A stretch of DNA of 64,000 bases from a virus, in IMG/VR virus record IMGVR_UViG_3300037466_003456, positions 57,682-121,681 of that record; one strand, given 5' to 3'. Below, in pieces: positions 8,146 to 27,012 of the stretch. The translations under genes and the position numbers were made by a program. The notes under the pieces are model-generated. The model saw only the letters and a list, made by a program, of their open reading frames with translations. It was not told the DNA's origin and did not search any database. The number at the start of each line of letters is the position of its first letter. Positions within the stretch are counted from its first letter, which is position 1.

Positions 8146-10572
8146 ATGATGAAAAGACGGATGATTAAAACGGCATCGGGGATTACCATGGCTGACAGTT
8201 CACCCGCTGCCATCGAAGAGGCTTTAGTGAACCAGTTGCAGGAAGCATTAGGAGAATGGAAAAACGTAGTTAATATTAAGCCATTCATGCAAGTGGATGA
8301 AGAAGATGCAGACCTTTCCGGAAATGTAAAAAATGCTTTTGGAGCCGTTCAGCTTTCCGTACATGGTGTGAATTTATATATTCCGTTTATTGTTGTGGAC
8401 AAAATGCTTCTCCCGTTTGATACCATCCGTATGGGCGGAGAAGAAGTCGCTTATGATTACAGCAAGTTAAGACGTCTCGTGAATGCCATCGAAACAAAGG
8501 TTAAAACGTCATCAGAAGGTGACAATGATCCGTTCCAGACCATGGAGGTGGCACGGTTTGAAGATGTTCAACCGAACAATGGTTTCTTGGGAACCATTAT
8601 GGGCATTCGTGATACAGCTCGCATGAGAAACGGTTTAGGGATGGATTCACCTTGGGATGGACCGGGATTTGGCAATATGGACGAGGAACGCATTATGCGT
8701 CAAGCGTCCGCTGTCGATGTTTTAAACGAATTTCACGAGGTTATGGAAAAGATTGCGAACGTAAAAGTTTTCTCTAAACTGCAAATGGAAGAATACGAAC
8801 AGCATCTGTTAAAACAGGCAGAAGAGGAACAGGAAGAGGAATTATCCAAAGTGGCCGAAGCAGAAGATACCCTTGAAGCAGCCAGTGTAAGACGAGATAT
8901 GCTTCAACTGGATGCAGAGAAACTAGTGAGTGTTCACCGTGTGGCTAGTGGAAACAACATCTCTTTCCCGATATTCGAAGCAGGTCGTTTTGAATACCAT
9001 TCAGGTCGTGTGTATCGAAACTTTGAAAGCTGGTTTAAGAATTCCACTACCTATGCTTCATCCAATAAGCTAGGGGCTTTAGTGATTGATTCTAAATCTG
9101 GTTACCGTTTCTTAAAGAGCGGCGAACCTTTTATGGCGAGCACCAGAGAACCCGGCAACTTCGAATTAGAAACGGAAGTAGCAAAGTCGTTAACGCATGG
9201 ACATATGTATACAATCGAAAAAGACCATGCTAACTTGTTCAATCCATTCATTGTAAAAGGTTCTTATTTGCAGGATAAATTGAATAACGGTATTGTCGTG
9301 AGTGTTCGTGAAATCGCTGACCCTACAAAAAGTCATATTCCTTCCAGAACAGCCAATAGCCTATTCTCTGATTCATTCGAGTGCTATGAATCCATGCCTG
9401 GTAACTGGAAAGGTGCTTCTGCTGATTTTGCGACAGGAAACAAACCGTTCTTTATCATCGTATCGAAAGACCGTAACATCAAAGCGCCAAAGTTCATGAA
9501 TCAGCAAGAACTAAGAGAATATATCATGCAGTATGCGGCTGATCCGCACGATGCCCTATTAGCAAAACAAGTCATTCATATTACAAATGACAACTGTGTC
9601 CTTGTGCCTGATTCCCTTCCGTTCTTTAAACTTGAAAAGAATATTACGTATTTCTACACAAGACCAGATGGGCTATTTAAACAAGGTCCAATGTCTAAGA
9701 CAGCTGCATATGGAGGTTTGAACCAAGCAACCTTGTATGTACAGAATGCCCGCAATCCGAAGACGTATGGGGTGAAATGGCAATTCGCTATTCCGACCAA
9801 AGTCGAGAATGATATCGAAGCAACCCAACTACAGAAACGCAATAAAGAAGGAATGAGTGAGGATCAAGCGAAGTCCATGTTGAACAAACTAGGATTCGAT
9901 TACCGTACTCAGCAAAAATTCTTTGAAATCACGAAACGTAACGGACGTTCTGCCACCTTTAATCTGCCGAACCCTACTTTAGCAGCAACGGTGTCAGCTC
10001 CTGATGTAGCGACTGAAAAAGTAAAAAAGAAAATGAAAGGTATTGCGGACTCTCTATTAAACTCACAAAACTTTATGCCTTTGATGGAAAATGCTGTAGC
10101 GGATGGACTTTCTGCTTTCGTTTCGAATGCATTCCCAGGTTCCGTTAATGCCGTCCATAACGTAGGTAACTTCTTCGATATGTCTAAACAATCGATGGAA
10201 ACCGCTTTGGAAATGGAAAAAGTGGCTACACGCTTTAATGGTGCCGAGTGGCATGAATTATCCGCTTTGTTGAACATGAAACATCGTTTAGATAAATTGG
10301 CTGCCGAAATGGAAGATGGAAGCTATTTGCAAAATGGTCGTGAAGTGTTTGAAAAAGTGGCTGAAATGAAACCGGTGATCGAGAAGAAAGCAAGTGACCT
10401 TATTCAATTTAACCGCGACCAGTTAATTCGCACCGACAGTTATTTCGTGGAACCAACGCTTGTGAAGCAAGCACTGGAGCAATTGGATGGACTTTATGTC
10501 TATGCTTGCTCCGAAAAAAAAAAGAGTCCTTTAGAAAAGTCGCTGGACTTTTTGGCGAGGGTGCGGAGTTAA
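8146..10572 (+). CDS. Large hypothetical, putative virion protein with KxA motifs; may be extended by a -1 frameshift
   Basis: ORF track 8113..10572; start at 8146 after AGGAGG; IKTAS, SKVAE, SKTAA, EKVAT, EKVAE motifs; ends over an A10 run. Confidence 0.7.
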   Translation: MMKRRMIKTASGITMADSSPAAIEEALVNQLQEALGEWKNVVNIKPFMQVDEEDADLSGNVKNAFGAVQLSVHGVNLYIPFIVVDKMLLPFDTIRMGGEEVAYDYSKLRRLVNAIETKVKTSSEGDNDPFQTMEVARFEDVQPNNGFLGTIMGIRDTARMRNGLGMDSPWDGPGFGNMDEERIMRQASAVDVLNEFHEVMEKIANVKVFSKLQMEEYEQHLLKQAEEEQEEELSKVAEAEDTLEAASVRRDMLQLDAEKLVSVHRVASGNNISFPIFEAGRFEYHSGRVYRNFESWFKNSTTYASSNKLGALVIDSKSGYRFLKSGEPFMASTREPGNFELETEVAKSLTHGHMYTIEKDHANLFNPFIVKGSYLQDKLNNGIVVSVREIADPTKSHIPSRTANSLFSDSFECYESMPGNWKGASADFATGNKPFFIIVSKDRNIKAPKFMNQQELREYIMQYAADPHDALLAKQVIHITNDNCVLVPDSLPFFKLEKNITYFYTRPDGLFKQGPMSKTAAYGGLNQATLYVQNARNPKTYGVKWQFAIPTKVENDIEATQLQKRNKEGMSEDQAKSMLNKLGFDYRTQQKFFEITKRNGRSATFNLPNPTLAATVSAPDVATEKVKKKMKGIADSLLNSQNFMPLMENAVADGLSAFVSNAFPGSVNAVHNVGNFFDMSKQSMETALEMEKVATRFNGAEWHELSALLNMKHRLDKLAAEMEDGSYLQNGREVFEKVAEMKPVIEKKASDLIQFNRDQLIRTDSYFVEPTLVKQALEQLDGLYVYACSEKKKSPLEKSLDFLARVRS

Positions 10573-10889
10573 AACGGGTAAGCGAAGCGATCCAACGATT
10601 GAAAGGTGACATTCAAGGTCTAAATTCGGACTACCGAAATGTTCACTCAAATTTAAGAGCGTCCATGCCTAAAGGATTCTCCTCTGACAAAGTTCAATCT
10701 GCTTTCAATGAAACGGAGCAGGCAGAGCAAAACCTGAATGAAAAAGTGGATGAGTTAAAATCCCTTTTTGGAGAACATGGTGAACTGAAACAAAAAGAAG
10801 CCAACAAGAACTATGGGATTGCTGCAGGATTCGGAATCCCTGGCTTAGTTGGATTAGGTTATGTGAATGAGCAGGCAAAAAACAACTAA
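10506..10889 (+). CDS. KxA/glycine-zipper module, probably reached by frameshift from the upstream ORF
   Basis: No good RBS before the TTG; FRKVAG motif, coiled coil, C-terminal GIAAGFGIPGLVGLGY. Confidence 0.5.
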   Translation: MLRKKKESFRKVAGLFGEGAELKRVSEAIQRLKGDIQGLNSDYRNVHSNLRASMPKGFSSDKVQSAFNETEQAEQNLNEKVDELKSLFGEHGELKQKEANKNYGIAAGFGIPGLVGLGYVNEQAKNN

Positions 10890-10896
10890 ACCGTAC

Positions 10897-10928
10897 AAAG
10901 GAGAGGTCAAATAACCCTCTCCTTTTTT
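10897..10928 (+). terminator. Intrinsic terminator
   Basis: AAAGGAGAGG/CCTCTCCTTT stem plus T-tract. Confidence 0.7.
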
Positions 10929-10964
10929 CAAATAAGTTTTTATGCCCCACACAAGAATAGGAGG

Positions 10965-11777
10965 ATGGTGCATATGGAACAATTCTATTTTCTTAAAGAA
11001 GCATTTGCTCAACAAAAAGGGAGATTATCCGAGGAAGAGGAATTACATCTATTGAAACAATATCAGGCGGGAGATTCACAATCAGGGGATAAATTAACGT
11101 TATCACTCCGTCCCCTAATTGAAAAAGCCATAGTGGATGTAAGCCCTGGTGGGAACGATGTCTCCTCTTCCAATCTACGGATGAGGGCTCATGTAGAGTT
11201 ACCTAAGATTCTACAAAACTATGATCAAAACCGAGATATCAAACTAAAGACGTTTGTAACGTCTCAGCTAAAAGGTTATCTTCGCAATGCGGTAGCAGAA
11301 AATGTGAGTGGCGCTTACGTTCCTCGGAATCAGCATACCGATTTAGAGCGGTACCGCCAAGCGGTAAGGGATGCGCAAATGGAATTCGGACACAATCCAT
11401 CCGAAGACCAGATTCGTTCGTTTTACCCAGAAGATGAAGCCAGCACCAGTTTCGATAAAATCAAACAATACCATTTAAACAACTATCTGGGTGACGCTAC
11501 TTTCGGTCAAGGCGAAGAAAGTGAAGGATTAACGTTCAAAGATCAGTTTGCGAATGATGAGGATACTATTGATCACGATGACCTCTTTTCTTCCCTATAT
11601 GATGACGAAGAAAATGATATAATTGCTAAAAATTTCACAGCTCAAGAACAACAAGTCATCGACAAAGTTAATAAAGAAGGTCAGTCCTTTGTCAATGCTG
11701 CCTTATCACTCGGAATCAGCACAGCCGAAGTCCGAAAAACGATGAGGCGCTGGCACGAAATCACTAAAAATAAATAG
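10965..11777 (+). CDS. Divergent sigma-70 family sigma factor (FliA/SigF-like architecture)
   Basis: Region 2-like LRPLIEKAI...QNYDQNRDIKLKTFVTSQLKGYLRNA, region 3 YVPR...EFGHNPSEDQI, C-terminal HTH AALSLGISTAEVRK. Confidence 0.75.
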   Translation: MVHMEQFYFLKEAFAQQKGRLSEEEELHLLKQYQAGDSQSGDKLTLSLRPLIEKAIVDVSPGGNDVSSSNLRMRAHVELPKILQNYDQNRDIKLKTFVTSQLKGYLRNAVAENVSGAYVPRNQHTDLERYRQAVRDAQMEFGHNPSEDQIRSFYPEDEASTSFDKIKQYHLNNYLGDATFGQGEESEGLTFKDQFANDEDTIDHDDLFSSLYDDEENDIIAKNFTAQEQQVIDKVNKEGQSFVNAALSLGISTAEVRKTMRRWHEITKNK

Positions 11778-11790
11778 TAAAGGGTGTTGT

Positions 11791-12528
11791 TTGATGAAAT
11801 TTCAAGGTGTAACAGCGCAAAACATTGGTCAAGCTCATGCTTTAAAAATGCTTACTAGTTCAAAGGATTATGCGTTTTTAACTGGACCGGCTGGAACGGG
11901 AAAGACGTTATTAACTGGCGCAGTTGGACTCGAACAAGTCATTAAACATCCTAAAGATGGATTCAAAAGTGTCATCTACACTCGTCTGCAAGTGCAAACG
12001 GGGGCAGACGTTGGATTCCTGCCAGGTGATTTGATGGAAGGAAAGACCGAACCTTTCTTGGAAGGATTTAAGGATAATTTCAAGGAAATGGATTACGACT
12101 TACCTTTCGACCATCTAATTAACAAGAAGCTGCAATTCGTGCCAATTCAAACCATGCGAGGAAGGACATTCCCTAATTCGTTCATTATCGTGGATGAAGC
12201 TCAAAACCTTGATGAAGATACTATTACAACCATTGCTACTCGATTGGGTATGGGGTCAAAAATGGTCTTCATGGGGAACTTCTCACAAATCGATGACAAA
12301 AAAGGATTCTTGAAAAAGCCTGAGAACAATGGGTTTTATCAATTGCTTAGTCGTTTTTACGAAACCACTGGCGGACACCAATTCTTTGAACATGTCCACC
12401 TTACAGAGATTCAGCGTTCTGGCGGTGCCGCTTTCGTAGAAAAGATGATGCGCAATCATAAATTAGATCCTCGTTTTGTTGATCTTGAGGAATGTGGAAT
12501 CGTTCAGGAAGAAGTTCTTTCTGCTTAA
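11791..12528 (+). CDS. phoH: PhoH family ATPase
   Basis: GPAGTGKT, MRGRTF, IVDEAQN, GSKMVFMGNFSQID. Confidence 0.93.
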   Translation: MMKFQGVTAQNIGQAHALKMLTSSKDYAFLTGPAGTGKTLLTGAVGLEQVIKHPKDGFKSVIYTRLQVQTGADVGFLPGDLMEGKTEPFLEGFKDNFKEMDYDLPFDHLINKKLQFVPIQTMRGRTFPNSFIIVDEAQNLDEDTITTIATRLGMGSKMVFMGNFSQIDDKKGFLKKPENNGFYQLLSRFYETTGGHQFFEHVHLTEIQRSGGAAFVEKMMRNHKLDPRFVDLEECGIVQEEVLSA

Positions 12529-12532
12529 TAGG

Positions 12533-12560
12533 AAAGTGACCTCATAGGTCACTTTTTTAT
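12533..12560 (+). terminator. Intrinsic terminator
   Basis: AAAGTGACC/GGTCACTTT stem plus T-tract after phoH. Confidence 0.7.
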
Positions 12561-12594
12561 TTATAATAGGACTATCGAACTAAAAAGAAAGAAG

Positions 12595-13278
12595 GTGGCA
12601 ATCTTGTCGCTTTTCGGTAATGACAATTTGGATTCCAAACAAAGAAGAAATGTCCATCTTGCACAGTTAGGCGGTGGTTTAGCGGGCGCAGGAGCAGGAT
12701 TCTTAACTTCTAAGGTGATGGATGCCTCACACGAAAAGTCGCTATTTCAGGCAGGAATGGACGCAACGAGAGATAATGAAAAAGCTGAGTTGCAATGGAA
12801 AAGGCTAATGGATTTATATTTAGGGAAAATCACCATCCAAGACATTCCGATTCCTGAACGTGATCGTTATTCAAAATGGCTAGAAGAAAATAAAGAAACA
12901 TTAGAGACTTTTCGCAACAATCCAGAGGAGTTTGAAAAATCCCTCAACGAAGTAAAAGGCGGTCGTCTGCAACCGTTATTTGGCCAAAAACCTTCCATCA
13001 AAGAACTTCTTTTTAGAAAGCGTCCGACCCAAGTGGATTTAAGAGGAGGAAATGTGGTTCCTTTATTTTCAGGCGAGAAAGAAGCTTTAATGGAAATTCC
13101 ACACGAAATCCACAACCCGAAGGCCTATGGATTAGCTGGAATGTTAGCCGCTGGCGGTTTAATAGGTGCAGGGTATCTAGCGGAAAGGAAATACGAAAAA
13201 GAGAATAAGGGCAAATATAACGAACAAGACTTAGATCAGCTTCAAAAAATGCTACAGGCATTGAAAGCACGAGGTTAA
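12595..13278 (+). CDS. Hypothetical protein with two glycine-rich hydrophobic segments
   Basis: LGGGLAGAGAGFL and YGLAGMLAAGGLIGAGY. Confidence 0.65.
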   Translation: MAILSLFGNDNLDSKQRRNVHLAQLGGGLAGAGAGFLTSKVMDASHEKSLFQAGMDATRDNEKAELQWKRLMDLYLGKITIQDIPIPERDRYSKWLEENKETLETFRNNPEEFEKSLNEVKGGRLQPLFGQKPSIKELLFRKRPTQVDLRGGNVVPLFSGEKEALMEIPHEIHNPKAYGLAGMLAAGGLIGAGYLAERKYEKENKGKYNEQDLDQLQKMLQALKARG

Positions 13279-13352
13279 AGCCTTGATTCGTGAATTATGA
13301 TACATTATTTATAGGTCATTTTTCCTATGTAAATAAAGTGAGGTGGAACTGT

Positions 13353-15590
13353 GTGGATGATTTATTAAACCGTTTGGAAAAGTCGGCGGGTCTCGGTGGC
13401 GGATTGTTTAAAGGATTCGGAAACTACCTTAAAAACGTTTCAAACTATAACGTTCGTAAATTAGAAAAAGCGAATGCCCTTCCGAAAGAAATTACGAACG
13501 CTAAAGTAGACCGTAATATCGCCCGCGCCGGAACGGCAGGTGTTGGTATGCTAGGTGGTGCTGCATATGGAGGTTATAAAGCCTTTGAAGGTACCCAACA
13601 GCAACCTATGGATACGACTTTGTATGAGCAAAATCAATTTACTCAAAATAACCTGCAACCGAAAATCGCTTCTGAAATGATGGATCGGTTGGAAAAGTCA
13701 GCTGGTAGTGAAGATATACCGCAATTAAATCATCATTCCCTTCTTAGTGCTGAAGGCGCAATGGCAACAGCCCCTATGGGAGCAATATTGGGTGGTTTAA
13801 AAAATGCTTCTAAGTTCGGGGAACGTGGTGCATTAAAAGGCGGACTCGGTGTTTTGCGCGGCGCGGCTGTAGGAGGTGTTCTAGGTGCTATACCAGGCAT
13901 GGAAGTAGGTGGAGCGATCGGTTCTCTTTTAGATGCCAACGAATTAACGAAATCACGCCGTTTGCAAGAACGACAAGCTATTAAGGATGCTATTAAAGAG
14001 GAGTTGAGAGAACAAATGGGGAAAACAGCAGAAACAGACCTGTTGGAGCGTTTAGAGAAAACTGCTGGTATTTTCGGCGATATTGTAAAAGCCACAGGTA
14101 TTGGAGCTGGACGTGCAGAAAAGAAATTCAATGAATTCGCTTCCCCTCAAGGGTTTTTACAGCACGAACCAACGATGGGTGCCCAGGATTGGCAACTACA
14201 AGCAAATAACCTAAAAAACCAAAGTGAACGAGCGGGGTTAGAACGTGATGTTGCACGTAAGAATCTTGTTGGCCCTGGTCTTGTAACAGGCGGTATAGCT
14301 GCACTTGCTGGGTCGATTGGTTTATCCGTTCATGAGATGCAACAACTTCATCAAGAAGCTTTGGCTGAATTGCAGGCAGAACAAGCACAAGGAGTACAAG
14401 CACAAGGGGTACAAGGAGATGATTATATGAAAGAGGCAAATGAATTACTAGAGCGATTAGAAAAAACAGCTTCTCTAAAGGAAGTTCAGGCAACAGACGA
14501 AGATTTATTTGCTCGTTTAGAAAAAACAGCAAATCCTTTTGAAGAGAAAGAAAAAAAGGACGAAGGTGAAGAAGAACAAAAGGCTCCGCAACAATCTAAA
14601 GAGGATTCTGAGCCGAAACAGTCACAAGCTCCAAAGCAAGAACAACCAGCACAACAAGCACAACCAGAACCACAAGCACAGACGGCACAACCGGAGCCAA
14701 CACCAGAGCCAACACCAGCACCTCAACAACAACAGGTGCCATTAGCAGCTCAACAACCACTTCCAGAACAAGCGCCAGATCCGCGTTTATTAATACTTCA
14801 GCAGATTTTAGCTGACCAACAACAAGGAGCGGCTCCAACGCCTGTTGAACCTCCAGTTCAGGAAGTCCCGCAAGAAGTAGCTGCTCCGGCTCCACAAGAT
14901 CCTCATTTGGAGTTGCAACAATTGCTTGCTCAACAACAAGCGGCAGACCCGACTCCAGTGGCAGCTTCATCAATGGCAGGGTATGGAGCACTCGAAACTG
15001 GTGATGCTTCTCAAGAAAGCCCTCGTCAAGGTGCAGGCTCTGTATCTAATGCCCCTGCTGGTGTAGATAAGACTGCTTCTTTATTTGAGAGTTTAGAAAA
15101 AACAGCAGCAGGCATTCCAGGACTTGGTTCTGTAGTCAATGCAGTTAAACCTAAAGCTACAAATCTAGCTATTAAAGGTGCACAAAAAGCCGGAGATTTC
15201 ACTAAACAAATCGGTGGCGGAGATTTCAAAGCTGGCTTAAAGAGAATTGGAACAGGTTCTGCTCTTGTTGGAGGTGGAGCTATTGCGGGTGCAAGTGCTC
15301 AAGCGTCTCATGACAGCAACATGAGTAAAGCGGCGGCTGAGGAAACACCAGCCGAACAAAAATCCATCGCGGATAAATCTGAAAAAGAATGGATCGACTT
15401 CATGCACAAAGTGGAAAAAGAAGATGGTGTGAAGGCAGAAGAAAAGCCTGAGAATCAATCAAAAACCGCTTCAGAAGACGATGATATGTTAAACGGATTA
15501 TTTAAAGAAGCCGCAGCCGCTATCATGGATATGCACTTTCCGGAAGTAAGACAGCATGTTGATCCAATCAACCGTATTACTTTCAACTAA
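13353..15590 (+). CDS. Repeat-motif polyprotein-like protein (six LxxLEK[S/T]A repeats, four glycine-zipper modules, Q/P/E-rich linker)
   Basis: ORF track 13290..15590; GTG start at 13353 after GAGGTGG; LLNRLEKSAG, MDRLEKSAG, LLERLEKTAG, LLERLEKTAS, LFARLEKTAN, LFESLEKTAA. Confidence 0.75.
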   Translation: MDDLLNRLEKSAGLGGGLFKGFGNYLKNVSNYNVRKLEKANALPKEITNAKVDRNIARAGTAGVGMLGGAAYGGYKAFEGTQQQPMDTTLYEQNQFTQNNLQPKIASEMMDRLEKSAGSEDIPQLNHHSLLSAEGAMATAPMGAILGGLKNASKFGERGALKGGLGVLRGAAVGGVLGAIPGMEVGGAIGSLLDANELTKSRRLQERQAIKDAIKEELREQMGKTAETDLLERLEKTAGIFGDIVKATGIGAGRAEKKFNEFASPQGFLQHEPTMGAQDWQLQANNLKNQSERAGLERDVARKNLVGPGLVTGGIAALAGSIGLSVHEMQQLHQEALAELQAEQAQGVQAQGVQGDDYMKEANELLERLEKTASLKEVQATDEDLFARLEKTANPFEEKEKKDEGEEEQKAPQQSKEDSEPKQSQAPKQEQPAQQAQPEPQAQTAQPEPTPEPTPAPQQQQVPLAAQQPLPEQAPDPRLLILQQILADQQQGAAPTPVEPPVQEVPQEVAAPAPQDPHLELQQLLAQQQAADPTPVAASSMAGYGALETGDASQESPRQGAGSVSNAPAGVDKTASLFESLEKTAAGIPGLGSVVNAVKPKATNLAIKGAQKAGDFTKQIGGGDFKAGLKRIGTGSALVGGGAIAGASAQASHDSNMSKAAAEETPAEQKSIADKSEKEWIDFMHKVEKEDGVKAEEKPENQSKTASEDDDMLNGLFKEAAAAIMDMHFPEVRQHVDPINRITFN

Positions 15591-16911: not shown

Positions 16912-18567
16912 ATGGCTTCTTTAAAAGAAGTAGAAGGTCAGCTGACCCCGATGAGGTTCGCAGAATCAATGTATATGTTGGAAGGTTCCCCGTTACGATT
17001 TGGACCAGGGCGGAATTATCTGAAAGCCATACATAATGCGGACATCGAAGAATTGCTGATGATGACAGGTCGTCAGGTAGAGAAATCCACCTCGATCTCT
17101 GTAAAAATAGCCAACAACATTCTATTAAGAAGTTTCAGCCGGAATCTTTACGTCGCACCCCTAAACGAACAGGTGAAAGTATTCTCTCGTGGTCGTCTGG
17201 ATAAATTGTTCCGATACTCACAAAAGGATTTAATTCGGAAACGGTACCAGAGTAATGACTTGGTAAATCAGGTATTCCATAAAGAATTTATGAATGGTAG
17301 TGAAATTTACCTTCGGAACTGTTTTGAAGAAGCCGACAATATTCGTGGACTATCTGTCAGTGACATCTTTATCGATGAAATTCAGGACATCCTAGTCGAT
17401 GCCCTACCCGTAATCTTAGAAACTCAAACACGCGCAAAAAAGAAGCGTAGAATCTATACGGGAACTCCCAAGTCGTTTAGTAACACGATACAACAACAGT
17501 GGGAGAAAAGTAGTCAAGCAGATTGGGTGATTCGTTGCTCCCACTGTGGGAAGCACCAAGTTATGGGGGTCGATTCGGTTACTGCTGCTTCATATGTATG
17601 CCGAAATCCTCGATGCCGTAAACCGATTGATGATATCGTTCGGGCCATGGGTCGCTGGGAACACCGTTTTCCAGACCGCCGGATGAAGGGTTTCCGTGTC
17701 ACGCAAATGATGGTTCCTGACATTAAGTCTGCGGATCTCCTGCAGAAGATTGAAACCTACCCTATCCTCCGTTTGAAAAATGAGGTTTTAGGAGAATCCT
17801 ATGAAAATGCGGATAAACCATTCACCCGTCAATTTATGATGGATATTACTGATCACGAATTCTCGATGATGAACGGAATCGTCAATACCCCATTCGCCAA
17901 CACCCCAACATTCTTGGGTATTGACTGGGGCGAAGGCGAAAAGAATGGGCAAGCTGGAACAGGTTACACTGTTATGACAGTCGGAGCCTATAATTCCGAA
18001 GGAAAGTTCCAAATCCTTTATGCCAAGCGATTTGAACGTGGCGATGAGTTAGATCCTGATTATCAGATTCGTAGTCTTCTTAATCTAGTAAAAGTCTTTA
18101 ACTGTCGTTTTGTCGTCGCTGACTATGGAGCAGGGGTTAAAGAGAACAAGAGAATTCAAAAACAGTTGGGAAAAATATTTGCTCAAATTCAATACGTCGG
18201 ACAGCAAAAAAAGAAACTTAACTATGATGCGGGTGAGTTTAAGTTTCTAATCGAGCGTTCCGACTGGATGACCGACTTTATTGATTTCGCCCACGATGGA
18301 AACCTTCGTTTCTTTGGGAAAAATCATGAAGGGGCATTGGATTGGATTTACGATAATTTTTGTGCCATTTATTCCGAATACCGTCCTGCTTCCAATGGGC
18401 TGTCTGAGAAACTATTTTACGGTCACGATGTCTCCCAGCCAGACGATGCATTTCACAGTGTTTTTTATGCGTGGTTTGCTTCCACGATGTATAAGAATGG
18501 AAACTCTAACCCGCAAAGGAATACAGGTCAAAAGAAATATTTTGCCTCTGTCAAAGCGGGATACTAG
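16912..18567 (+). CDS. terL: Terminase large subunit
   Basis: Walker A variant GRQVEKST, Walker B IFIDEIQD, YTGTPKS coupling motif, CxxC...CxxxxC zinc finger, RNase H-like LGIDWG and PDDAFH. Confidence 0.88.
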   Translation: MASLKEVEGQLTPMRFAESMYMLEGSPLRFGPGRNYLKAIHNADIEELLMMTGRQVEKSTSISVKIANNILLRSFSRNLYVAPLNEQVKVFSRGRLDKLFRYSQKDLIRKRYQSNDLVNQVFHKEFMNGSEIYLRNCFEEADNIRGLSVSDIFIDEIQDILVDALPVILETQTRAKKKRRIYTGTPKSFSNTIQQQWEKSSQADWVIRCSHCGKHQVMGVDSVTAASYVCRNPRCRKPIDDIVRAMGRWEHRFPDRRMKGFRVTQMMVPDIKSADLLQKIETYPILRLKNEVLGESYENADKPFTRQFMMDITDHEFSMMNGIVNTPFANTPTFLGIDWGEGEKNGQAGTGYTVMTVGAYNSEGKFQILYAKRFERGDELDPDYQIRSLLNLVKVFNCRFVVADYGAGVKENKRIQKQLGKIFAQIQYVGQQKKKLNYDAGEFKFLIERSDWMTDFIDFAHDGNLRFFGKNHEGALDWIYDNFCAIYSEYRPASNGLSEKLFYGHDVSQPDDAFHSVFYAWFASTMYKNGNSNPQRNTGQKKYFASVKAGY

Positions 18568-18606: not shown

Positions 18607-19521
18607 ATGATCCCTGTTAGAAATAAGAATACCGACATTAGTTCTGATGTGGCAGCGGGTAAGAAACTTCAGGATAAAATCAAGAAGTTAGCTGAAACGG
18701 CGGCAAATCAAAGCATCAATGACGGCAAAGATTTGGATGTCGTGCTTGCCGAGATAAGCAAACGGGAAAAGTTTAACCGGTTGCAGATTCAGAGGTTGGT
18801 AGAAGAATCAAATACGGTGGCTTACAATAAAAGGTATGACAAATTACGAAATCAAAAGGACAGGCGAATCGATTTCCCTCTCGCCTCTTTATCAGGAGTG
18901 ATTAATGAAATGGGTAATGATGCACCAGCAGAAATCAAAAATCCAAATTTAAAAGATGGCGGTCAAGGGACTGGAGAACTCTCTAAAGCGGCATCCGTAG
19001 AGGAATTCACATATATCCATACTCCCAATGCACGTTTAAAGGAAAGAGAAGAACGATACCTTTCCAAAGTAGCTTCCGTCCAACAGCGCCAAGACGAACG
19101 GGAAAAATCAAGACAAGAAAAAGATCACCAAAGTTCTCTCTTTAAAATTGCCAATTCTATTGTGATGTCCGAGCGCCAATATAAAAATGGGAATGAAGTG
19201 TTCAATACTCTTCTTTCTGATGTTTCATTGGCACAGGATGACATTGATGGCATTAAGAAGAAAGCCTCTGAAATCGGTGATGCATTGGTTAAAACGAAAC
19301 GAACCCATTCTGGCTTTGTGGTAACCTTAAAGGAGAATCCGATTGAGAAAGTCGCTAGTCATGTTCTTGGAGAATACAGCCTTTTAAAGGTTGCCGAGAG
19401 CAATGATAAGGTCAAAGTAGTAAAAGTCCAACCTACGGCAGATGTATCGGATTTTAATCAATTAGTCACTTTAGCCAGGAAGCTACAACAACAAGCAAGC
19501 ACTGGGAATGAGGTGAATTAA
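18607..19521 (+). CDS. Hypothetical putative virion protein with KxA motifs
   Basis: KKLAE, SKAAS, SKVAS, FKIAN, EKVAS, LKVAE; lies between terL and portal. Confidence 0.65.
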   Translation: MIPVRNKNTDISSDVAAGKKLQDKIKKLAETAANQSINDGKDLDVVLAEISKREKFNRLQIQRLVEESNTVAYNKRYDKLRNQKDRRIDFPLASLSGVINEMGNDAPAEIKNPNLKDGGQGTGELSKAASVEEFTYIHTPNARLKEREERYLSKVASVQQRQDEREKSRQEKDHQSSLFKIANSIVMSERQYKNGNEVFNTLLSDVSLAQDDIDGIKKKASEIGDALVKTKRTHSGFVVTLKENPIEKVASHVLGEYSLLKVAESNDKVKVVKVQPTADVSDFNQLVTLARKLQQQASTGNEVN

Positions 19522-19522
19522 T

Positions 19523-21175
19523 GTGTCGAACTACTTTGAAGAATTAGAGAAGATTGCCAATGACCTTACATTGGTGGATGATCTTGCTGCAGAGCCAATG
19601 GTTCCCGATTATGCACCTCAGATTCCTCCAGAGGAAGTGGAAGCGATTCAAGCCAATCAACCTGATATGGTCGATACCGAAGCTGGAATGGAAGGGCAAG
19701 AACCCGTTTCCCAGGAAGATATAGAAGCTTATGATCAGGCAATCGAGCAAGCTCAAATGCAATTGGAATCTGCTAAAGAAACGTTGGCGAGTGCCATGGA
19801 AGAATACAATGCATTCGAAAAAACCGCTCAAGAACTAAATGATGCTCTTCCGACCATGGGAGCATTGGCTAAGTTAATTGAATACTCCACAAGCGAAACC
19901 ATCGACGATGACCTTCGGAAACAGGCAAGCGACCGTTTAGTAATGGCGCTTGAAAGTGAAGAAAGTTTTGTAGAAGTCATGGATAAAACAGCAAACGAGC
20001 TATTTGAAGACCAAGAAGATAAGGATGCCCTATACTCTCCTGAAGGAAGGGAATATGTCATTGAGCGTCTTGCTTTGTTCGCTGAGGATGAGGAGTTAGA
20101 AAAGACAGCGGCTGATTTAGGTGGATTCGTGAATGACGCTCGTAAATGGGCCGCAGAATCCCTTGATGCAGCAAGGAAATTCCACAAATTACGTGCTGAT
20201 GTTAAACAAACACAAGCTGAGGTTGACCGTTTAGAATCAATCATGAAAGAAAAAGTAAATGCATTGAAAGATGCGCAAAGCTTAAATGATGATGACTTGG
20301 TGGCTAAATTAGAACCAGAGGCCTTTGGAGCAAGGGATGACCACACTCGAATGAAAGGTCAGCTTTTAGATGAGCAGATACAACGAGACCGAGGAAGGAA
20401 CTTATTGATCGGCGGGGCGACAGGACTGGTTGGTGGTTCTTTATTTGCAGGTAAAAAAATAGCCGATGCCTTCAATAATCATGGTGAAAACCAAGGTGAA
20501 AATGAATTGGCAGAGAAAACGGCTAGTGATACAATAAAACAAGATTATGTATTTAAAGAAGGAGGCAATATTAACATGGCAGAATCAATCGTAAAAGATT
20601 TTCTTAAAATCGCGGGAGCGGCTGTTTTATTAGATGTGGCAAACGATGAGGGTGCTGAAGAGGCAATCCGCAAAGAAGCAGCTGAAGCTTTTAACGGTAT
20701 CGCTCGCATGGGGCGTAAGGATATGGAGGAAGCTCTTGTAAAAGTTGCTACTCAAATGTATTCTGAAGACCAATTACACGAAATCGTTTCAGGCAAACAT
20801 AATGAAGAGTTATTCGGTAAGGTTGCATTCTTCACTAGCCTTAACGACCTTTCTGTGGACGAGCTTGAAAAAGTTGCGGCTGCTGAGTCTGTTGCAGCTA
20901 AAGGTGTTGGCGGCGCTCTTACTGACGCTAAATCAAACATCGAAGCAAAAGTAGAAGGCGACAAAAAGAAAACCGAAACAGTGGCTAACGGCGAAATCGG
21001 CACTAAAAAGGCTGACGATATGCGCGGTTACAATGTAATCAATAGCCCTGGTGAATACAAGGTTGAAAAAACTGCGGCTACACAAACTATGCTTGAAGAA
21101 GCTGAGCTTCGCAAAGAAGCAGCATACAAAGCATTTGTAGAAGCTGATACTTTCATTAAAAACAATTCTAAGTAA
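19523..21175 (+). CDS. Hypothetical putative virion/scaffold-like protein with many KxA motifs and one glycine-zipper module
   Basis: ELEKIAN, FEKTAQ, MDKTAN, ELEKTAA, EKTAS, FLKIAG, LVKVAT, FGKVAF, ELEKVAA, VEKTAA; LLIGGATGLVGGSLFAG. Confidence 0.7.
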   Translation: MSNYFEELEKIANDLTLVDDLAAEPMVPDYAPQIPPEEVEAIQANQPDMVDTEAGMEGQEPVSQEDIEAYDQAIEQAQMQLESAKETLASAMEEYNAFEKTAQELNDALPTMGALAKLIEYSTSETIDDDLRKQASDRLVMALESEESFVEVMDKTANELFEDQEDKDALYSPEGREYVIERLALFAEDEELEKTAADLGGFVNDARKWAAESLDAARKFHKLRADVKQTQAEVDRLESIMKEKVNALKDAQSLNDDDLVAKLEPEAFGARDDHTRMKGQLLDEQIQRDRGRNLLIGGATGLVGGSLFAGKKIADAFNNHGENQGENELAEKTASDTIKQDYVFKEGGNINMAESIVKDFLKIAGAAVLLDVANDEGAEEAIRKEAAEAFNGIARMGRKDMEEALVKVATQMYSEDQLHEIVSGKHNEELFGKVAFFTSLNDLSVDELEKVAAAESVAAKGVGGALTDAKSNIEAKVEGDKKKTETVANGEIGTKKADDMRGYNVINSPGEYKVEKTAATQTMLEEAELRKEAAYKAFVEADTFIKNNSK

Positions 21176-21312: not shown

Positions 21313-22755
21313 TTGGCAAAGAAAAAAGAGATGTATGAAGATCATTTAGGAAATCTTTCTTGGAAAGATTCTTGGCTTCAAAACACTGTCCAATTGGCAG
21401 CCTTGGGTGGAATCGTGGCGGGAGCGAGCAGTTTAGCCATTAAGGGTGACTTAGGAGATGCGTTCAGAACCGGTAAGTCTGCCTTTAAACCTGTAGGTAA
21501 GGTGTTTGATAAGTACGTGAAAGACAGAGCTGGCATGCCAGTTAAATTCGGGTACCAGGTGTTCAAAAATATGTATAACAACATGAGGAAATTGACACCT
21601 GAAGAAAGAGATGTCTTCGAACGAGGTTTCTATGGCCGAGTAGACAACGCGGTAGACAAAGTAGATACCGATCCCGAAATTCAAAATCGTATTTGGAAAG
21701 AAGTGGAACGGAGATTTCCGACAGAACGAGAAAGACAGAAAGTAAGAGACCGACGTAACGGAACCAATAATTTTTCCCAAACAAGTGACAATGAAGCGAT
21801 TGACCAGATTTATGAACAAGTACGCTCTGAAGAACGGGATAAGTTGATTTACGGCAACAGCAATGGAGGACAACGAAATAACCGAAACAACCGGAATAAC
21901 AATACTTTCAATAACCATAACAACAATCGACCGTTGTTCGACAAGAGAGATTTAGCCCAAAAGTTCATTGCAAGTGGCGTGATGGGATTAGGTACGGGAG
22001 CTGGTCTTACAGCCTTCCATTACATTGACCGATTATCGAAAGACCCGAGCTCCCAACAAAGATTGGAGAACACATTTCAACATGCTGGTTCGTTCTTAAA
22101 TCCTCAGAAAAAGGATGATGATAAAAAGATGGATAAACAAGCGAGTGTACTAGGATTTTACAACGCTGTAAAGGATGCACCTAAAAAACTACCTGAAGCT
22201 CTTTTTGCCGGCGCAGGATACACAGGTCTTACATTAGGTACTGCCAAGTTACTACATGGCCATGACCCGCGTAAGACAGAACCACAAGCAAATGAGGAAC
22301 CGGCGTCCGCAGGACCACGAGTCATCATTGAACTAGGAAACCCCACTGAAGAACAACAGCATGCTGGCATGCCACTCGGTTTAAGTGGTCTTCCTAAATT
22401 GGCAGGTTTCAGAAACTTTTTAAATGACTTTAACGGGCATGAAGCGGAAATTGGTAGATTGCAAAACATTCACCATGCAGATGTAGCGGCAGAAGCACTA
22501 AAGAATGAAAACGTCGAAGACCTTCTTCATCAGCAGTATGGGCATTTGGTCAACGATAAAACTCAAGCGAATTTCACCAATCGCCTTTTCGAAAGCAGAG
22601 CAGCGCAGTCTAAACAGGAAGCGGATGAAAGAATCAGACAACTTCAAGAACAAGAAGCAAGAGCAAAACTAACTGTTTACGGTGGCGGCATTGGCGCTGC
22701 TGGTTTAGCTGGAATGGGTTATGCCCACCACAAAAAGGAGCAACCAAATGTATAA
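21313..22755 (+). CDS. Hypothetical protein with several glycine-zipper segments and KxA motifs
   Basis: LAALGGIVAGAS, SGVMGLGTGAGL, AGAGYTGLTLG, YGGGIGAAGLAGMGY; MDKQAS, LPKLAG; Asn-rich patch. Confidence 0.7.
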   Translation: MAKKKEMYEDHLGNLSWKDSWLQNTVQLAALGGIVAGASSLAIKGDLGDAFRTGKSAFKPVGKVFDKYVKDRAGMPVKFGYQVFKNMYNNMRKLTPEERDVFERGFYGRVDNAVDKVDTDPEIQNRIWKEVERRFPTERERQKVRDRRNGTNNFSQTSDNEAIDQIYEQVRSEERDKLIYGNSNGGQRNNRNNRNNNTFNNHNNNRPLFDKRDLAQKFIASGVMGLGTGAGLTAFHYIDRLSKDPSSQQRLENTFQHAGSFLNPQKKDDDKKMDKQASVLGFYNAVKDAPKKLPEALFAGAGYTGLTLGTAKLLHGHDPRKTEPQANEEPASAGPRVIIELGNPTEEQQHAGMPLGLSGLPKLAGFRNFLNDFNGHEAEIGRLQNIHHADVAAEALKNENVEDLLHQQYGHLVNDKTQANFTNRLFESRAAQSKQEADERIRQLQEQEARAKLTVYGGGIGAAGLAGMGYAHHKKEQPNV

Positions 22756-23047: not shown

Positions 23048-23070
23048 GCACCTCCCATAGGTGCTTTCTT
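23046..23070 (+). terminator. Intrinsic terminator
   Basis: AAGCACCT/AGGTGCTT stem plus T-rich tail. Confidence 0.55.
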
Positions 23071-23096
23071 CCATATAAAAGAGGTGAACCTTTTTA

Positions 23097-24986
23097 ATGA
23101 TTAAAATTTCGTCTTTTCTCGTCAATGACAGAGCAACAAGAGTATATGCCGATTATGTTGAAAAAGTCGCATTTCCAATAGGTGCTGACGCTGGTTTGAT
23201 TATGGGTTCGATTGCTGCTGGACTAACAATGAATCACTTCTCCAGAAAAGCAAAAGAGCAACAGCAACAACAAAACGCACAGCCATCTCCTAGCATTGAA
23301 AATGGTGCGTACACCCAAATTGAAAATATGTTACGTGATCTTAAAATTGTTTTCACACCGATTAGCGTCATTTATTCGGTGAATGGGCAAGTATTTGAAA
23401 TCATCAGTACCGAAGAAATGAATGCTTATATGAGGCAAGCGTTCATCCAAAAAGATGCTAATTATTTTCGTGACCTTCTCTTAAACAAAATTAATATGGA
23501 AACACAATTAGCCGAGCAAGCCTTTGCCCAGCGCCTTTTGACCGCAAACGGAGTGGGTGAACAGCAAAAGCAGGCAAACTTCCTGGAAAAACAAGAATAC
23601 CTTTTGAAACTTTCGGAAGAAGAAAGCGATGTTTTGGTGAAAAAAGCATCGCAAGGATTGGATGGAGTAAAAATCACCATCGACCCAACTTTTGATTCTC
23701 TCCGTCCCTTCGATCATTCCATCACTTTTTGCAACCCGAGGGAATTGGAAAAAGTGGCAGGCATTTTTGAATTATTCCAAGGCGATCAAGTTCAAGATGT
23801 CGGAGTTCATCAATTAAACAGTCAAGTGAACGTCGGATTCCTTCCTGACAGAGTGGTGTTCTTGTGGAATGGACAACTGATTGACCAGCTTACCCTCCTT
23901 CACATGAATGAAGAAGGTTTTGAAGCATTCCGGAACCGAGATAAACCATTTTTTATCGACTTATTTAAGCAATATACCAAAGAAGTAACGGAGGGATTAC
24001 AGGAATCTCCATCGGAACCAAATCATATTGAAGCGCCTGAAGAGGAAACCCATGAAGCTTCTGTATCCGACATTCTGGAACGGCTAGAAAAGACTGCTGA
24101 GGGCTTTGAGGACATCCTAGATGACTTTACTCCTGTTATTGAAAGAGATCATATAGAGCTATTTGAAGATCCTGATATCCATCCGATTGTGTACGACAAA
24201 GTATTGTCTCACAAGTACAGCAATTCATGGCACAGACACGAAATGGAATCAATTATGAAACAGATTGAGGAGGACTTCCACCTATCTAAAGGGATAGAGG
24301 AGAATCCACTTAATAAACTTTCCATCATTCATGCCATTTCGAATCCTGACCACGCCATGTACACATCACCATTTACATTTGAAAAGTACATGCGTGGTAT
24401 GAATTCCAAATCCGTTTTATTTGAGGATTTTCAAGGCAATCTCTCTTTCGAGGAAATCATGTTTGGTTTGGAATTAGCCAAACTCTATAACGGAGAGGAA
24501 GTGTTTTTTGAGTTCCACTCCAATGTTGCTGCTTATGTAGCAGAAGAAATCATGAATGATGGAGTTCGATTTGTTTCTAACGTGCTATACGACGAAACGA
24601 ATCCATCTGAAAATGATTTCTTCCGTACAGTCAATGACTTACTGATGAGGAAATGGAAAGAAGAAGATTCACTGGGATACAGGGATAACGAGGGCGTTCG
24701 CCATCGACATACATTAACGGAACAGATTGTTGAAATCGCCGATGACATCTTAAAACATTACAATTCTTTGTTGGATGTTGCGGATCCCTACAATTCTACC
24801 CGAAATATTTTGCGAAGTGAAAACTTACTGGATGTTGTTTCTTCACAAGACCAAACAAGTGTGAGAAACATGGTGGTTCAGAATGTTGTGGCTCATGTCA
24901 CCACTTCCTTGTTTTTAGATTATAAACGTGAAGAATATGAACACTCCATCTCATTGTTACAGAAAGAAGGTGTGCTAAATGGATGA
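23097..24986 (+). CDS. Hypothetical putative virion protein upstream of portal
   Basis: 629 aa; EKVAF followed by a hydrophobic Gly/Ala segment, LEKVAG, LERLEKTAE; overlaps the portal start. Confidence 0.7.
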   Translation: MIKISSFLVNDRATRVYADYVEKVAFPIGADAGLIMGSIAAGLTMNHFSRKAKEQQQQQNAQPSPSIENGAYTQIENMLRDLKIVFTPISVIYSVNGQVFEIISTEEMNAYMRQAFIQKDANYFRDLLLNKINMETQLAEQAFAQRLLTANGVGEQQKQANFLEKQEYLLKLSEEESDVLVKKASQGLDGVKITIDPTFDSLRPFDHSITFCNPRELEKVAGIFELFQGDQVQDVGVHQLNSQVNVGFLPDRVVFLWNGQLIDQLTLLHMNEEGFEAFRNRDKPFFIDLFKQYTKEVTEGLQESPSEPNHIEAPEEETHEASVSDILERLEKTAEGFEDILDDFTPVIERDHIELFEDPDIHPIVYDKVLSHKYSNSWHRHEMESIMKQIEEDFHLSKGIEENPLNKLSIIHAISNPDHAMYTSPFTFEKYMRGMNSKSVLFEDFQGNLSFEEIMFGLELAKLYNGEEVFFEFHSNVAAYVAEEIMNDGVRFVSNVLYDETNPSENDFFRTVNDLLMRKWKEEDSLGYRDNEGVRHRHTLTEQIVEIADDILKHYNSLLDVADPYNSTRNILRSENLLDVVSSQDQTSVRNMVVQNVVAHVTTSLFLDYKREEYEHSISLLQKEGVLNG

Positions 24987-27012
24987 AAACATGAAAGCCG
25001 ACATTTCCCGCATGGAAGAAAAGATGGCGAACTATCTTGATAAATTAACAGGTCATTCCGATGGAATGTTTAAAACGGCGGCTGCTACTGGGATGATGTA
25101 TAACTCCAGCTACAAACAATATCGTTCCAGCTTTTTAACCCTCGGAGATATGCAAATTCCTGATGATTATCGGGAGATTTTTAGATGGTGCCGATACTTT
25201 TTTAAGTTTGATAGTTTGGTTGGGGCGGCAGTTCGTTCACTAGCCACCTTCCCGATAACAGATTGGGTGTTAGATGATACGGAGAATTCCGACGATGAGG
25301 ATTCAGAGGATCAATCAGAGGATGAATCAGAAGAACCCTCTGAAACTTACAAATTTTACGAGAGTATCTTAAATGACATCAAGCTATACAGCCACATGAT
25401 TGAGGTTGGCTACGATTACTTCTTGTACGGTAACTGTGTCATATTTGCCGAGCCGGGAGTCAAGAATATCAAACGTCGTGACCCTGACACCGGACAAGTA
25501 TCCGAAAGAAAAGAAGTGGTTTGGAAATCGATTCAACGATTGGATGTTACCCGTCTTCGGATTGACCGAGACCCAAAAACAAATGAAAAACAATATTACT
25601 ATGACATTCCTTTGGAATTAAAGCGTGTCATTCAAACGCAGAAACCGAAGGAAAAATACGATAGAATACCAGAAATTTTCAAAAAGGCGGTTAAAGCAAA
25701 AGGATTGGTCAAACTAAAATCCGACTACATCTATCATTTGCAGATGCCTTCTGAAAGCGGAGATTCAGGATTATGGGCCACACCACCGGTGTTACATGCC
25801 ATGAAGCTTATCTTGTATTCGAACGTGTTGAGACAAGCGCAAGAAGCGATTGCCTATGAACATATCATCCCTAAGCGGATCTACTATTTCCAAGAAACGC
25901 AGGAGTATTCGCCAAACATGGACTTTGCTTCCATCGCTTCCGAGTTCGCCCTTGAATTAAAACGTCAGCTCGATGATCCAAACTACCAGGTCATTAGCCC
26001 GTTCCCAATCAATCAGCTCATGCATGGCGGACAGGGTAAGGCATTGATGCTCGTTCCTGAATTGGAACAGCTGCAAGAAACCATCTTAGCGGCGATGGGT
26101 ACTCCACGTGAATTCGTTTTTGGAGGAGTTTCCTATTCTGGCAGTACAACGAGTCTACGAATCTTGGAAAACCAATTTATCACGTACCGTACCAATTTAC
26201 TGGACTATATCAATGATTTCTTAATTAAGAGATTGGCAGAAATCCGAGGTGAATGGGAAACCATCGACGATGATAAAAAGCTCGTAAAAGTTCAGTTTGC
26301 CGAGCTCAAGATGCAAGATGATATCCAACAAAAGCAACTAATGTTGCAACTCAATGAAGCGGGTAAACTGCCGGATGAAGTGTTGTACGAAAAGGTATTG
26401 GGCCTCGATGCCAGCAAGACGATTAAGCAATTGCAGGCAGAACGCATCCGAAAACTAAAAGAGCAAGCAGAACTGCAAATTAACCAAATGGAAATTGAGC
26501 AGGAAATGCAAGATGAAGCGATGCAGAGGGGATTAATGACTCCACCTGTTCCTGTGAATGGTCCTGTTATTCCTGAACCTGCAGCAGGCGCATATGGTCA
26601 GGCAACCGAGGGAGACCCGATGATGGCTGAGGCTGGCGGTGATATGGCTGGCGATCCTACAGGAGGAGCTCAACCGACTTCGGACAGTAGTCAATCTTCT
26701 TCTGGTTCAAGTAGCGGAAGTAACTCATCATCAAAATCGGACAAGTCATCATCCGATAAAAAATCCGGTGAATCGGGTGGTAAGTCGGGACGTGAGGAAC
26801 GCGATGCCTTAAAGATGGCTCAGCAAATGGAACTAATGACTGAAGCACAAAAGGCGAATCTTATCCGCAAACTTCCTCAGAAGGAAGCGCAACGGATTCT
26901 CCTATACTACAACCAGTTAAAGGCAGAACACGGTTCATCCGATTCTGGAGAAACCGACATGAGACCATACCCTGAACAGCGCCCACCACGTAGAACGGTC
27001 GGTGGTGTGTAA
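24979..27012 (+). CDS. Phage portal protein
   Basis: REIFRWCRYFF...GAAVRSLATFP, AIAYEHIIPKRI, GGQGKALM, ILAAMGTPREFVFGG; low-complexity C-tail; located near terL. Confidence 0.75.
   Translation: MDENMKADISRMEEKMANYLDKLTGHSDGMFKTAAATGMMYNSSYKQYRSSFLTLGDMQIPDDYREIFRWCRYFFKFDSLVGAAVRSLATFPITDWVLDDTENSDDEDSEDQSEDESEEPSETYKFYESILNDIKLYSHMIEVGYDYFLYGNCVIFAEPGVKNIKRRDPDTGQVSERKEVVWKSIQRLDVTRLRIDRDPKTNEKQYYYDIPLELKRVIQTQKPKEKYDRIPEIFKKAVKAKGLVKLKSDYIYHLQMPSESGDSGLWATPPVLHAMKLILYSNVLRQAQEAIAYEHIIPKRIYYFQETQEYSPNMDFASIASEFALELKRQLDDPNYQVISPFPINQLMHGGQGKALMLVPELEQLQETILAAMGTPREFVFGGVSYSGSTTSLRILENQFITYRTNLLDYINDFLIKRLAEIRGEWETIDDDKKLVKVQFAELKMQDDIQQKQLMLQLNEAGKLPDEVLYEKVLGLDASKTIKQLQAERIRKLKEQAELQINQMEIEQEMQDEAMQRGLMTPPVPVNGPVIPEPAAGAYGQATEGDPMMAEAGGDMAGDPTGGAQPTSDSSQSSSGSSSGSNSSSKSDKSSSDKKSGESGGKSGREERDALKMAQQMELMTEAQKANLIRKLPQKEAQRILLYYNQLKAEHGSSDSGETDMRPYPEQRPPRRTVGGV

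Follow-up and report, generated by a model that had tools for sequence, protein, structure and literature searches.

A Lys-x-Ala motif shared by head-region proteins of an uncultured soil phage, a candidate recognition code for a prohead protease

Herpesvirus assemblin cleaves (V/L/I)-x-A|S at its M and R sites, and only the protease and the scaffold are cut, not the capsid protein. In phage HK97, the gp4 protease cuts the capsid protein gp5 after Lys103, removing its delta domain. To our knowledge, only the prohead proteases of T4, phiKZ, and SPN3US have a well-defined code that is shared by multiple substrates, and all three cut after Glu. Short motifs direct the cuts that T4 gp21 and phiKZ gp175 make in scaffold and internal proteins; the sites are redundant, and the proteases also process themselves (PMC9026906, PMC10052503). 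In phiKZ-type phages, propeptides contain several redundant sites, the protease undergoes C-terminal self-processing, and the motif allows prediction of the head proteome (PMC9026906, PMC10052503). Here, we describe a Lys-based motif, K-x-A, in head-region proteins encoded by the last 64 kb of a linear, 121,681-bp IMG/VR virus contig (IMGVR_UViG_3300037466_003456, hereafter G000). The source is an uncultured soil phage, and the contig has an estimated completeness of 80% by CheckV. We refer to the whole 64,000-nucleotide stretch as the window.

A preliminary description of the window had proposed a genome-wide code with a Lys-based consensus for cleavage or head targeting. Every computational test that we ran fits such a code, but its reach is restricted to about eight to ten head proteins and does not extend across the genome. 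We consider it likely that the sequence Phi-[E/D]-K-[V/T/I]-A-[S/A/G], where Phi is a hydrophobic residue, is the recognition and cleavage site of this lineage's prohead (capsid-maturation) protease, an enzyme of the T4 gp21/herpes assemblin fold.

Distribution of the motif across the proteome

We called 161 nonoverlapping open reading frames (ORFs) on the whole contig, and 123 of these entered a proteome-wide test. For each protein, the count of [LFMIVY]-x-K-x-A (hereafter Phi-x-K-x-A) was compared with the Poisson expectation from the protein's own composition, with Bonferroni correction. Exactly five ORFs were significant (p 1.3e-7 to 2.9e-4; Table 1), and the motif was not equally frequent elsewhere. 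Summed over all ORFs outside the five, there were 51 copies compared to 48.2 expected, in line with the earlier statement that the motif is not conspicuous in replication genes. Of the 23 copies of [ED]K[TSVI]A on the contig, 21 were in the five ORFs (within-protein shuffle mean 0.8, z 25), while the other 156 ORFs, comprising 36 thousand residues, had 2 copies versus 5.0 expected. Likewise, all 20 contig copies of the strict motif Phi-[ED]-K-[TSVI]-A were inside the five ORFs, where 0.19 were expected, with zero elsewhere. A third form, K-x-A-[SGANT], was observed 41 times in the five ORFs, compared to 7.5 expected from within-protein shuffles. The enrichment in the five ORFs is exclusive and approximately 100-fold. 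Motif counts in the other 156 ORFs were at or slightly under expectation, and expected counts were too low for depletion in nonsubstrates to be demonstrable. As a negative control, the large terminase, which is located inside the block of motif genes, had zero strict sites, and the same was true of its orthologs.

The enrichment was specific to the residues and spacing of the motif. Within the five ORFs, K.A occurred at 2.64x and Phi.K.A at 7.4x of expectation. Controls with a substituted residue or altered spacing, namely, R.A (0.89x), K.G (0.97x), K.S (0.95x), K..A (0.98x), KA, and E.A, were all at 0.76 to 1.0 of expectation, and reversed motifs were at chance in within-protein shuffles. Arg, Gly, Ser, or another spacing did not stand in for K-x-A. 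The T4-type Glu motif [LI].E (1.05x) and the phiKZ-type Glu motif [SAG].E (1.00x) were also at expectation, which bears out the earlier view that the Lys-based consensus is unlike the Glu-based ones. The herpes-type motif [VLI].A was not enriched either. Furthermore, motif copies differ in synonymous codon use, indicating that they have been kept at the protein level and do not stem from recent DNA duplication.

Some genes that the preliminary description had listed as motif carriers did not stand up to this test. The ORFs beginning at 8113, 13290, 18607, 19523, and 23097 are the five significant ones, but ORF 10506, ORF 21313, and the portal gene have just one or two sites. ORF 10506 has a single site and is not a separate motif gene, because it continues the 8113 protein in the -1 frame. 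The distant genes at 43673, 62807, and 63186 contain only single K-x-A triplets at chance level. From the conservation of their sites, ORF 21313 and the portal are plausible members of the code, with too few sites for statistics. In the 21313 protein, which was not significant alone, all four orthologs retain K275 and K55, and a DLEKTA or DLQKTA insertion is found close to K362 in relatives. The portal shows no enrichment and has a single candidate N-terminal processing site (GMFKTA-A, K32) that is kept in 3/3 orthologs.

Table 1. Coordinates of the motif proteins and neighboring genes in the window, and of the candidate protease in a related genome (aa, amino acids; TM, template-modeling score; counts and p values are for Phi-x-K-x-A)
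Feature	Coordinates	Strand	Observed/expected	p	Remarks
Head-region protein, 819 aa from 8113 (808 aa from likelier start 8146)	8113..10572	+	10/1.61	7.4e-6	Candidate protease substrate
ORF 10506	10506..10889	+			-1-frame continuation of 8113 protein, no gene of its own
Sigma factor	10965-11777	+			Inside head/packaging block
PhoH-like protein (PhoH-like ATPase gene)	11791-12528	+			Inside head/packaging block
Polyprotein-like 766-aa protein	13290..15590	+	11/1.63	1.3e-6	11 sites
Large terminase subunit	16912..18567	+			phrog_675, E 1.2e-53
304-aa protein directly downstream of large terminase	18607..19521	+	7/0.67	6.9e-6	Sites K27, 127, 154, 180, 218, 248, 261
Acidic scaffold-like 550-aa protein, 119 D+E	19523..21175	+	12/1.59	1.3e-7	12 sites
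480-aa protein with Gly-rich hydrophobic segments	21313..22755	+			Marginal member; two sites, K275 (MDKQA-S) and K362
WYL-like small protein	22721	+			In plus-strand block
629-aa head-region protein	23097..24986	+	5/0.56	2.9e-4	Five sites, all within first 334 residues
Portal protein	24979..27012	+			Atlas features 0.96; structure TM 0.59-0.63 to portal clusters; weak PHROG portal match
Fused beta/beta' RNA polymerase, 2241 aa	27347-34072	+			In plus-strand block
Protease of relative G001	156716..154245 (L018:14245-16716:-)	-			Assigned by PHROG and fold

Conservation and placement of the sites

We compared the sites among homologs of the motif proteins. For the 19523 family, 35 homologs were found and 22 were aligned (33 to 71% identity). 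In this family, 13 of 18 K-x-A triplets were kept in at least 17 of the 22 sequences, and most of the invariant columns of the alignment were the K and A of the motif. Conservation was 77% for motif K and 82% for motif A, compared to 44% and 51% for other K and A residues. Eleven sites were conserved in the 8113 family (25 sequences, 26 to 91% identity): K518, K692, and K774 (808-aa numbering) were present in 25/25 sequences and eight more in 16 to 24 of the 25. Among 54 cluster representatives of the 23097 family (21 to 54% identity), sites were kept near K23 (37/54), K158 (49/54), and K332 (45/54), with almost no sites in the last 40% of the protein. Orthologs of the 13290 protein were only 12 to 22% identical, yet each retained 6 to 10 sites. 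Four sites of the 18607 protein were kept in 3/3 orthologs (42 to 44% identity). K and A were the best-conserved residues in four families (22 to 54 sequences, with identity down to 21%), and these alignments indicate that the motif K and A are under purifying selection in the 19523, 8113, and 23097 families and in the protease family described below. A logo of 37 conserved sites had information at six consecutive positions. Two residues before the Lys, 86% were hydrophobic (L/F/I/M/V), and 46% were E/D at the position that follows; after the Lys came V/T/I (58%), so that beta-branched residues lie between K and A, then the Ala, a small residue (S/A/G/N/T, 64%), and E/D.

Every candidate substrate has a site inside its first 8 to 31 residues. 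In the window, the first sites are K19 or K8 (8113, depending on the start), K31 (13290), K27 (18607), K10 (19523), and K23 (23097); in proteins of the relatives, they are K28 (protease), K22 (225-aa protein), and K15 (406-aa protein). In the AlphaFold model of the 23097 protein (overall predicted local distance difference test [pLDDT] score of 81), K23, K158, K219, and K332 all fall in segments that are disordered or that link folded modules. The C-terminal domain (residues ~350 to 629) is site-free and helical with a pLDDT of >90, and on this model it is likely the mature product. The model matched no PDB fold by Foldseek or by wide VIA-align (best Z 5.3), and its sole match in BFVD was one uncharacterized phage protein. 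None of the five motif proteins matched a PHROG or Pfam family.

The sites of the 13290 protein divide Gly/Ala-rich hydrophobic modules and a P/Q-rich spacer. Six of its 11 sites have the form LxxLEK[ST]A, often doubled 10 to 12 residues apart. If every site in the 19523 protein were cut, the computed pieces would be 12 to 168 residues long. Gly/Ala-rich hydrophobic, glycine-zipper-like segments are common to several proteins of the block (e.g., AYGLAGMLAAGGLIGAGYL, GGLGVLRGAAVGGVLGAIPGM, and LAALGGIVAGASSLAI). They are found at 12595-13278, 13290-15590, and 21313-22755, at the C terminus of 10506-10889, and in residues 23 to 45 of 23097-24986. As a second shared feature beside K-x-A, these segments may mark membrane-active proteins that are ejected.

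In the 8113 protein, the 10 Phi-x-K-x-A sites are K19, K213, K234, K246, K529, K703, K728, K748, K758, and K785; its Atlas model was poor and uninformative. We considered this protein as the true portal or capsid protein and dropped it, as the portal is encoded at 24979 and the capsid protein of relatives by a separate gene for a 305-aa product. A run of ten A residues in the DNA (10513-10522), containing the slippery heptamer A_AAA_AAG, joins the 8113 frame to ORF 10506. The site FRKVA-G opens this ORF, and a Gly-rich hydrophobic tail closes it. Most 8113 orthologs are ~900 aa long and read "LxKxAGFF" at the junction point, with the site present in 21/25. P0156 and P0158, which are close relatives (90% and 80% identical), have a length of ~805 aa as well, suggesting that the split may be programmed rather than a homopolymer sequencing error. 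It may reflect a conserved -1 frameshift or transcriptional slippage that yields short and long forms.

A candidate protease and the reading of the motif

The preliminary description had expected a prohead protease elsewhere in the genome. No such gene is present on G000, which is truncated just downstream of where it would lie, and we found one in relatives. No close relatives of the window proteins were found in the INPHARED phage collection, in IMG/VR by a single-sequence terminase search, or in a scan of GTDB genomes. Through related IMG/VR loci, we reached two complete genomes, G001 (174,193 bp, with terminal repeats) and G002 (175,348 bp). Both keep the whole head/packaging block in synteny, and the same orthologs, including those of the 18607 protein, were motif-enriched in the proteome-wide test. 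They also contain a head cluster that is absent from G000 and encodes, in order, proteins of 823 to 848 aa, 225 aa, 406 aa (a coiled coil), 148 aa, and 305 aa, the last being the major head protein (phrog_2522, E 1e-23). A tail sheath gene lies further on.

The 823-aa protein is the candidate protease. It matched PHROG 18299, "head maturation protease" (E 1.3e-11), and residues 40 to 200 of its AlphaFold model (pLDDT 71.8) aligned with T4 gp21 (5jbl_B; Z 8.9, root-mean-square deviation of 3.4, 126 residues). The next match was to an unrelated structure (Z 5.4), and the human cytomegalovirus (HCMV) protease 1ieg_A scored Z 4.1. Searching PDB sequences with the portal, with the protease, or with the protease profile yielded no useful match. 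Among 47 family members (30 to 82% identity), H90, S141, H167, H192, D193, and S195 are invariant. Judging by position, H90 and S141 would be the catalytic His and Ser. A Cys4(+His) cluster at residues 144 to 167 (C144, C151, C154, C165, and H167) is also invariant and resembles a zinc ribbon that interrupts the catalytic domain. We know of no such cluster in T4 gp21.

The protease is itself the most motif-enriched protein in both relatives, with 11 and 13 sites (p 9e-8 and 2e-8), followed by its 225-aa and 406-aa neighbors (p 5e-5 and 6e-5). Five of its sites bracket the catalytic domain, and these are kept across the family: K28 in 47/47 members, K224 in 44/47, K244 in 47/47, K262 in 38/47, and K273 in 42/47. 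K28 and K224 lie in segments with pLDDT <50. A helical middle domain (residues 280 to 530) is folded and site-free, and a further cluster of sites is located in the C-terminal tail. Linkers contain most of the sites at the borders of folded domains in both modeled proteins, the relatives' protease and 23097.

These features match those of T4 gp21 and phiKZ gp175 in having two fixed residues, redundant sites, N-terminal leaders, and self-processing, and on this basis, we interpret the motif as a cleavage code for a gp21-fold protease. We infer cleavage, the position of the scissile bond, packaging, and ejection from these patterns. On this reading, the five window proteins, the extensions of the protease, and two scaffold-like neighbors of the capsid gene would be coassembled within the procapsid. 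The protease would release its own catalytic domain by cutting the flanking sites, and acidic scaffold-like proteins (19523 and the 406-aa protein of relatives) would be chopped to small peptides that exit the shell. Short N-terminal leaders and linkers would be removed from cargo (23097 and 8113), while mature domains, such as the C-terminal 295 residues of 23097 and the modules of 13290, would stay in the head. The 13290 protein would then be a polyprotein of Gly/Ala-rich hydrophobic modules. The spacing of K-x-A fits the P3-x-P1 geometry of T4 (L/I-x-E), phiKZ (S/A-x-E), and herpesviruses (V/L/I-x-A|S), so that, by analogy, the cut probably falls after Ala, with K at P3, A at P1, and a small residue at P1'. 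A cut after Lys, fitting Phi-x-K, is a less probable but still credible alternative. The capsid protein appears to be unprocessed, resembling the herpesvirus arrangement.

Several observations weigh against a protease cleavage code. Searches of G000 for Pfam S78 and S77 were empty, because the contig begins 87 residues into a gene downstream of the head cluster, and the link between this phage and a protease consequently depends on its relatives. The relatives' protease, in turn, had no match to Pfam S77, S78, or a PDB sequence profile, its assignment coming from fold and PHROG. Many of its C-terminal sites are in predicted helices and not in loops. The relatives' 305-aa capsid protein lacks any site, unlike the capsid proteins of T4, phiKZ, and HK97. 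A protease homolog in mycobacteriophage Myrna showed no enrichment, indicating that not all of this protease family uses the code. Lastly, the literature that we searched contains no data on cleavage, neo-N termini, or the virion proteome for this phage or any other carrier of the motif.

The reach of the motif was wider than the window and its close relatives. All 30 proteins sampled from the protease family contained 7 to 13 Phi-x-K-x-A sites compared to ~1.2 to 2.3 expected; they were drawn from 120 listed among 397 matches at E <= 0.001, with identity down to ~29% and including Clostridia-associated contigs. The catalytic domain also has homologs in cultured phages. In Bacillus phage G, gp19 has 7 sites compared to 0.77 expected (p 1.7e-5). 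A recent study of phage G named gp19 a maturation protease and stated no specificity. Four proteins of Vibrio phage D181, namely, the protease homolog and three neighbors, each have 5 to 9 sites, most of them of the form Phi-x-K-x-A-S, with p as low as 4e-8. In Salmonella phage Arash, no clear enrichment was seen over the first 45 kb, where only gp4 gave a weak signal. No description of a prohead protease code based on Lys-x-Ala, or on Lys or Ala, was found in the literature searched, which excluded subscription journals and reported only Glu-based codes for this class. The K-x-A specificity is thus apparently undescribed for any phage, although a search of this kind does not prove absence.

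A bolder version of the cleavage reading, which we regard as doubtful, is that Lys-x-Ala marks an old, cross-phylum branch of specificity, found in phages of Bacillota (including phage G) and in Vibrio phages, that cuts after Ala like herpes assemblin and so links phage and herpesvirus specificity. The 13290 protein would in that case be a true polyprotein, in which cuts at the doubled sites would free glycine-zipper peptides of ~100 residues to be packaged with the DNA and ejected, with the host membrane as their target.

It is also possible, although unlikely, that the motif serves, without being cleaved, as a docking or capsid-targeting peptide whose repeats bind a pocket of the inner capsid, scaffold, or portal and load the head by avidity, as do the cargo-loading peptides of encapsulins. 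The presence of several copies per protein, with an N-proximal copy in every member, is consistent with docking, as are the restriction of the motif to head-region proteins and a capsid protein that is itself site-free; binding and cutting are not separable from sequence alone. However, invariant copies on both sides of the protease catalytic domain are the signature of self-processing known from T4 gp21 and phiKZ gp175, many sites are in disordered linkers between domains, and 12 or 13 copies in one acidic scaffold-like protein suit degradation better than docking. Nor does docking exclude cleavage, since T4 leaders serve both roles.

A different reader, such as an enzyme that modifies or cross-links lysine or a host protease, is very improbable. 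In favor of this explanation, the Lys is invariant, and there is a precedent for host involvement in the protease Prp, which processes the capsid and scaffold proteins of staphylococcal phage 80alpha. However, Bacillota phages and Vibrio phages share the code, which argues for a reader encoded by the phage, and the motif is invariably accompanied by the phage's gp21-fold protease, which it flanks. Moreover, we know of no lysine-modification consensus of this form. Finally, a structural or compositional by-product of helical coiled coils (through helix capping or heptads, with no shared reader) is largely refuted: E, K, and A are abundant in the proteins and several sites are predicted to be helical, but shuffles that keep composition within each protein gave z 9 to 25, the reversed and substituted controls described above were at expectation, other sites are located in linkers that are disordered and in Gly-rich proteins that are not helical (13290), and the motif K and A are far better conserved than other K and A residues of the same proteins.

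Gene block and comparison with known systems

The motif genes belong to a single plus-strand block that spans 8.1 to 34 kb of the window, in which several large ORFs without a family match are interspersed among recognizable genes (Table 1). A sigma factor gene is similarly placed near the terminase in phage G (gp3) and in Salmonella phage Arash (gp10). The 174- to 175-kb relatives lack PhoH at the position corresponding to 11791-12528. The fused RNA polymerase gene directly follows a small post-portal gene in G000, G001, and G002. Comparison of loci L004, L005, and L008 with 27347-34072 showed that the L004-type relative has no long plus-strand ORF after this small gene, and the polymerase gene is therefore not adjacent in that type. 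Contigs of relatives (175 to 180 kb) occur in several NCBI assemblies of Priestia megaterium (proteins P0014, P0015, P0021, P0065, P0067, P0163, P0164, and P0173). This points to P. megaterium as the host, with carriage as an episome or pseudolysogen, and offers a possible route to a culturable system. The code is already directly testable in two cultured carriers, phage G and Vibrio phage D181. If the code is confirmed, the sequences of a large group of phages of 120 to 500 kb, mostly uncultured, could be used to identify the internal head proteome and its mature domains, and the motif could serve as a new tag to load foreign proteins into capsids and then trim them.

Among described systems, HK97 and herpesviruses each share part of this arrangement. 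HK97 has a Lys beside the scissile bond in a substrate of a phage prohead protease, as would be the case here. However, no multiprotein K-x-A code is known for it, and Pfam S78 has no match to the relatives' protease. Herpes assemblin has the same protease superfold (HCMV 1ieg_A, Z 4.1), its sites have an Ala followed by a small residue, as the motif does here, and it is fused to a scaffold-like C-terminal region from which flanking sites free it, as is predicted here. In contrast, the residue two before the Ala is hydrophobic in herpesviruses and an invariant Lys here, [VLI].A is not enriched, and herpesviruses have two or three sites rather than dozens in many proteins.

The phiKZ-type systems (phiKZ gp175, 201phi2-1 gp268, and SPN3US gp245) process many head proteins, as we propose for this phage, and their S/A/G-x-E sites are in inner-body and ejection proteins. 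They differ in cutting after Glu, with [SAG].E at expectation here, and in clearly cleaving the capsid protein and portal, whereas the capsid protein here is site-free. In addition, the RNA polymerase encoded beside the portal here has only chance-level triplets.

The T4 system (protease gp21, PDB 5jbl; scaffold core gp22/gp67/gp68 and internal proteins) shares more. The fold of the relatives' protease resembles that of gp21 (Z 8.9 to 5jbl_B), and many proteins share one short motif in which the residues at two positions, n and n + 2, are fixed. In both, scaffold-like proteins are rich in sites, cargo has short N-terminal leaders that end in a site, and the catalytic domain of the protease has sites at either end. 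The leader that ends at a site in each substrate is like the T4 capsid-targeting sequence, and a targeting role is predicted for it. The portal is also T4-like by Atlas. The differences are that the fixed residues are Leu/Ile and Glu in T4 and Lys and Ala here, with [LI].E at expectation in the substrates; that the relatives' protease is fused to ~600 extra residues, among which are a helical domain that is folded and a tail with many sites; that a Cys4 cluster is inserted in its catalytic domain; and that the capsid protein is short (305 aa) and site-free. Because neither [LI].E nor [SAG].E is enriched, this phage would work like the T4 and phiKZ systems without sharing their specificity. If so, the specificity of the gp21-fold family has switched completely in this lineage, while its logic of scaffold degradation, leader removal, and self-release has remained unchanged.

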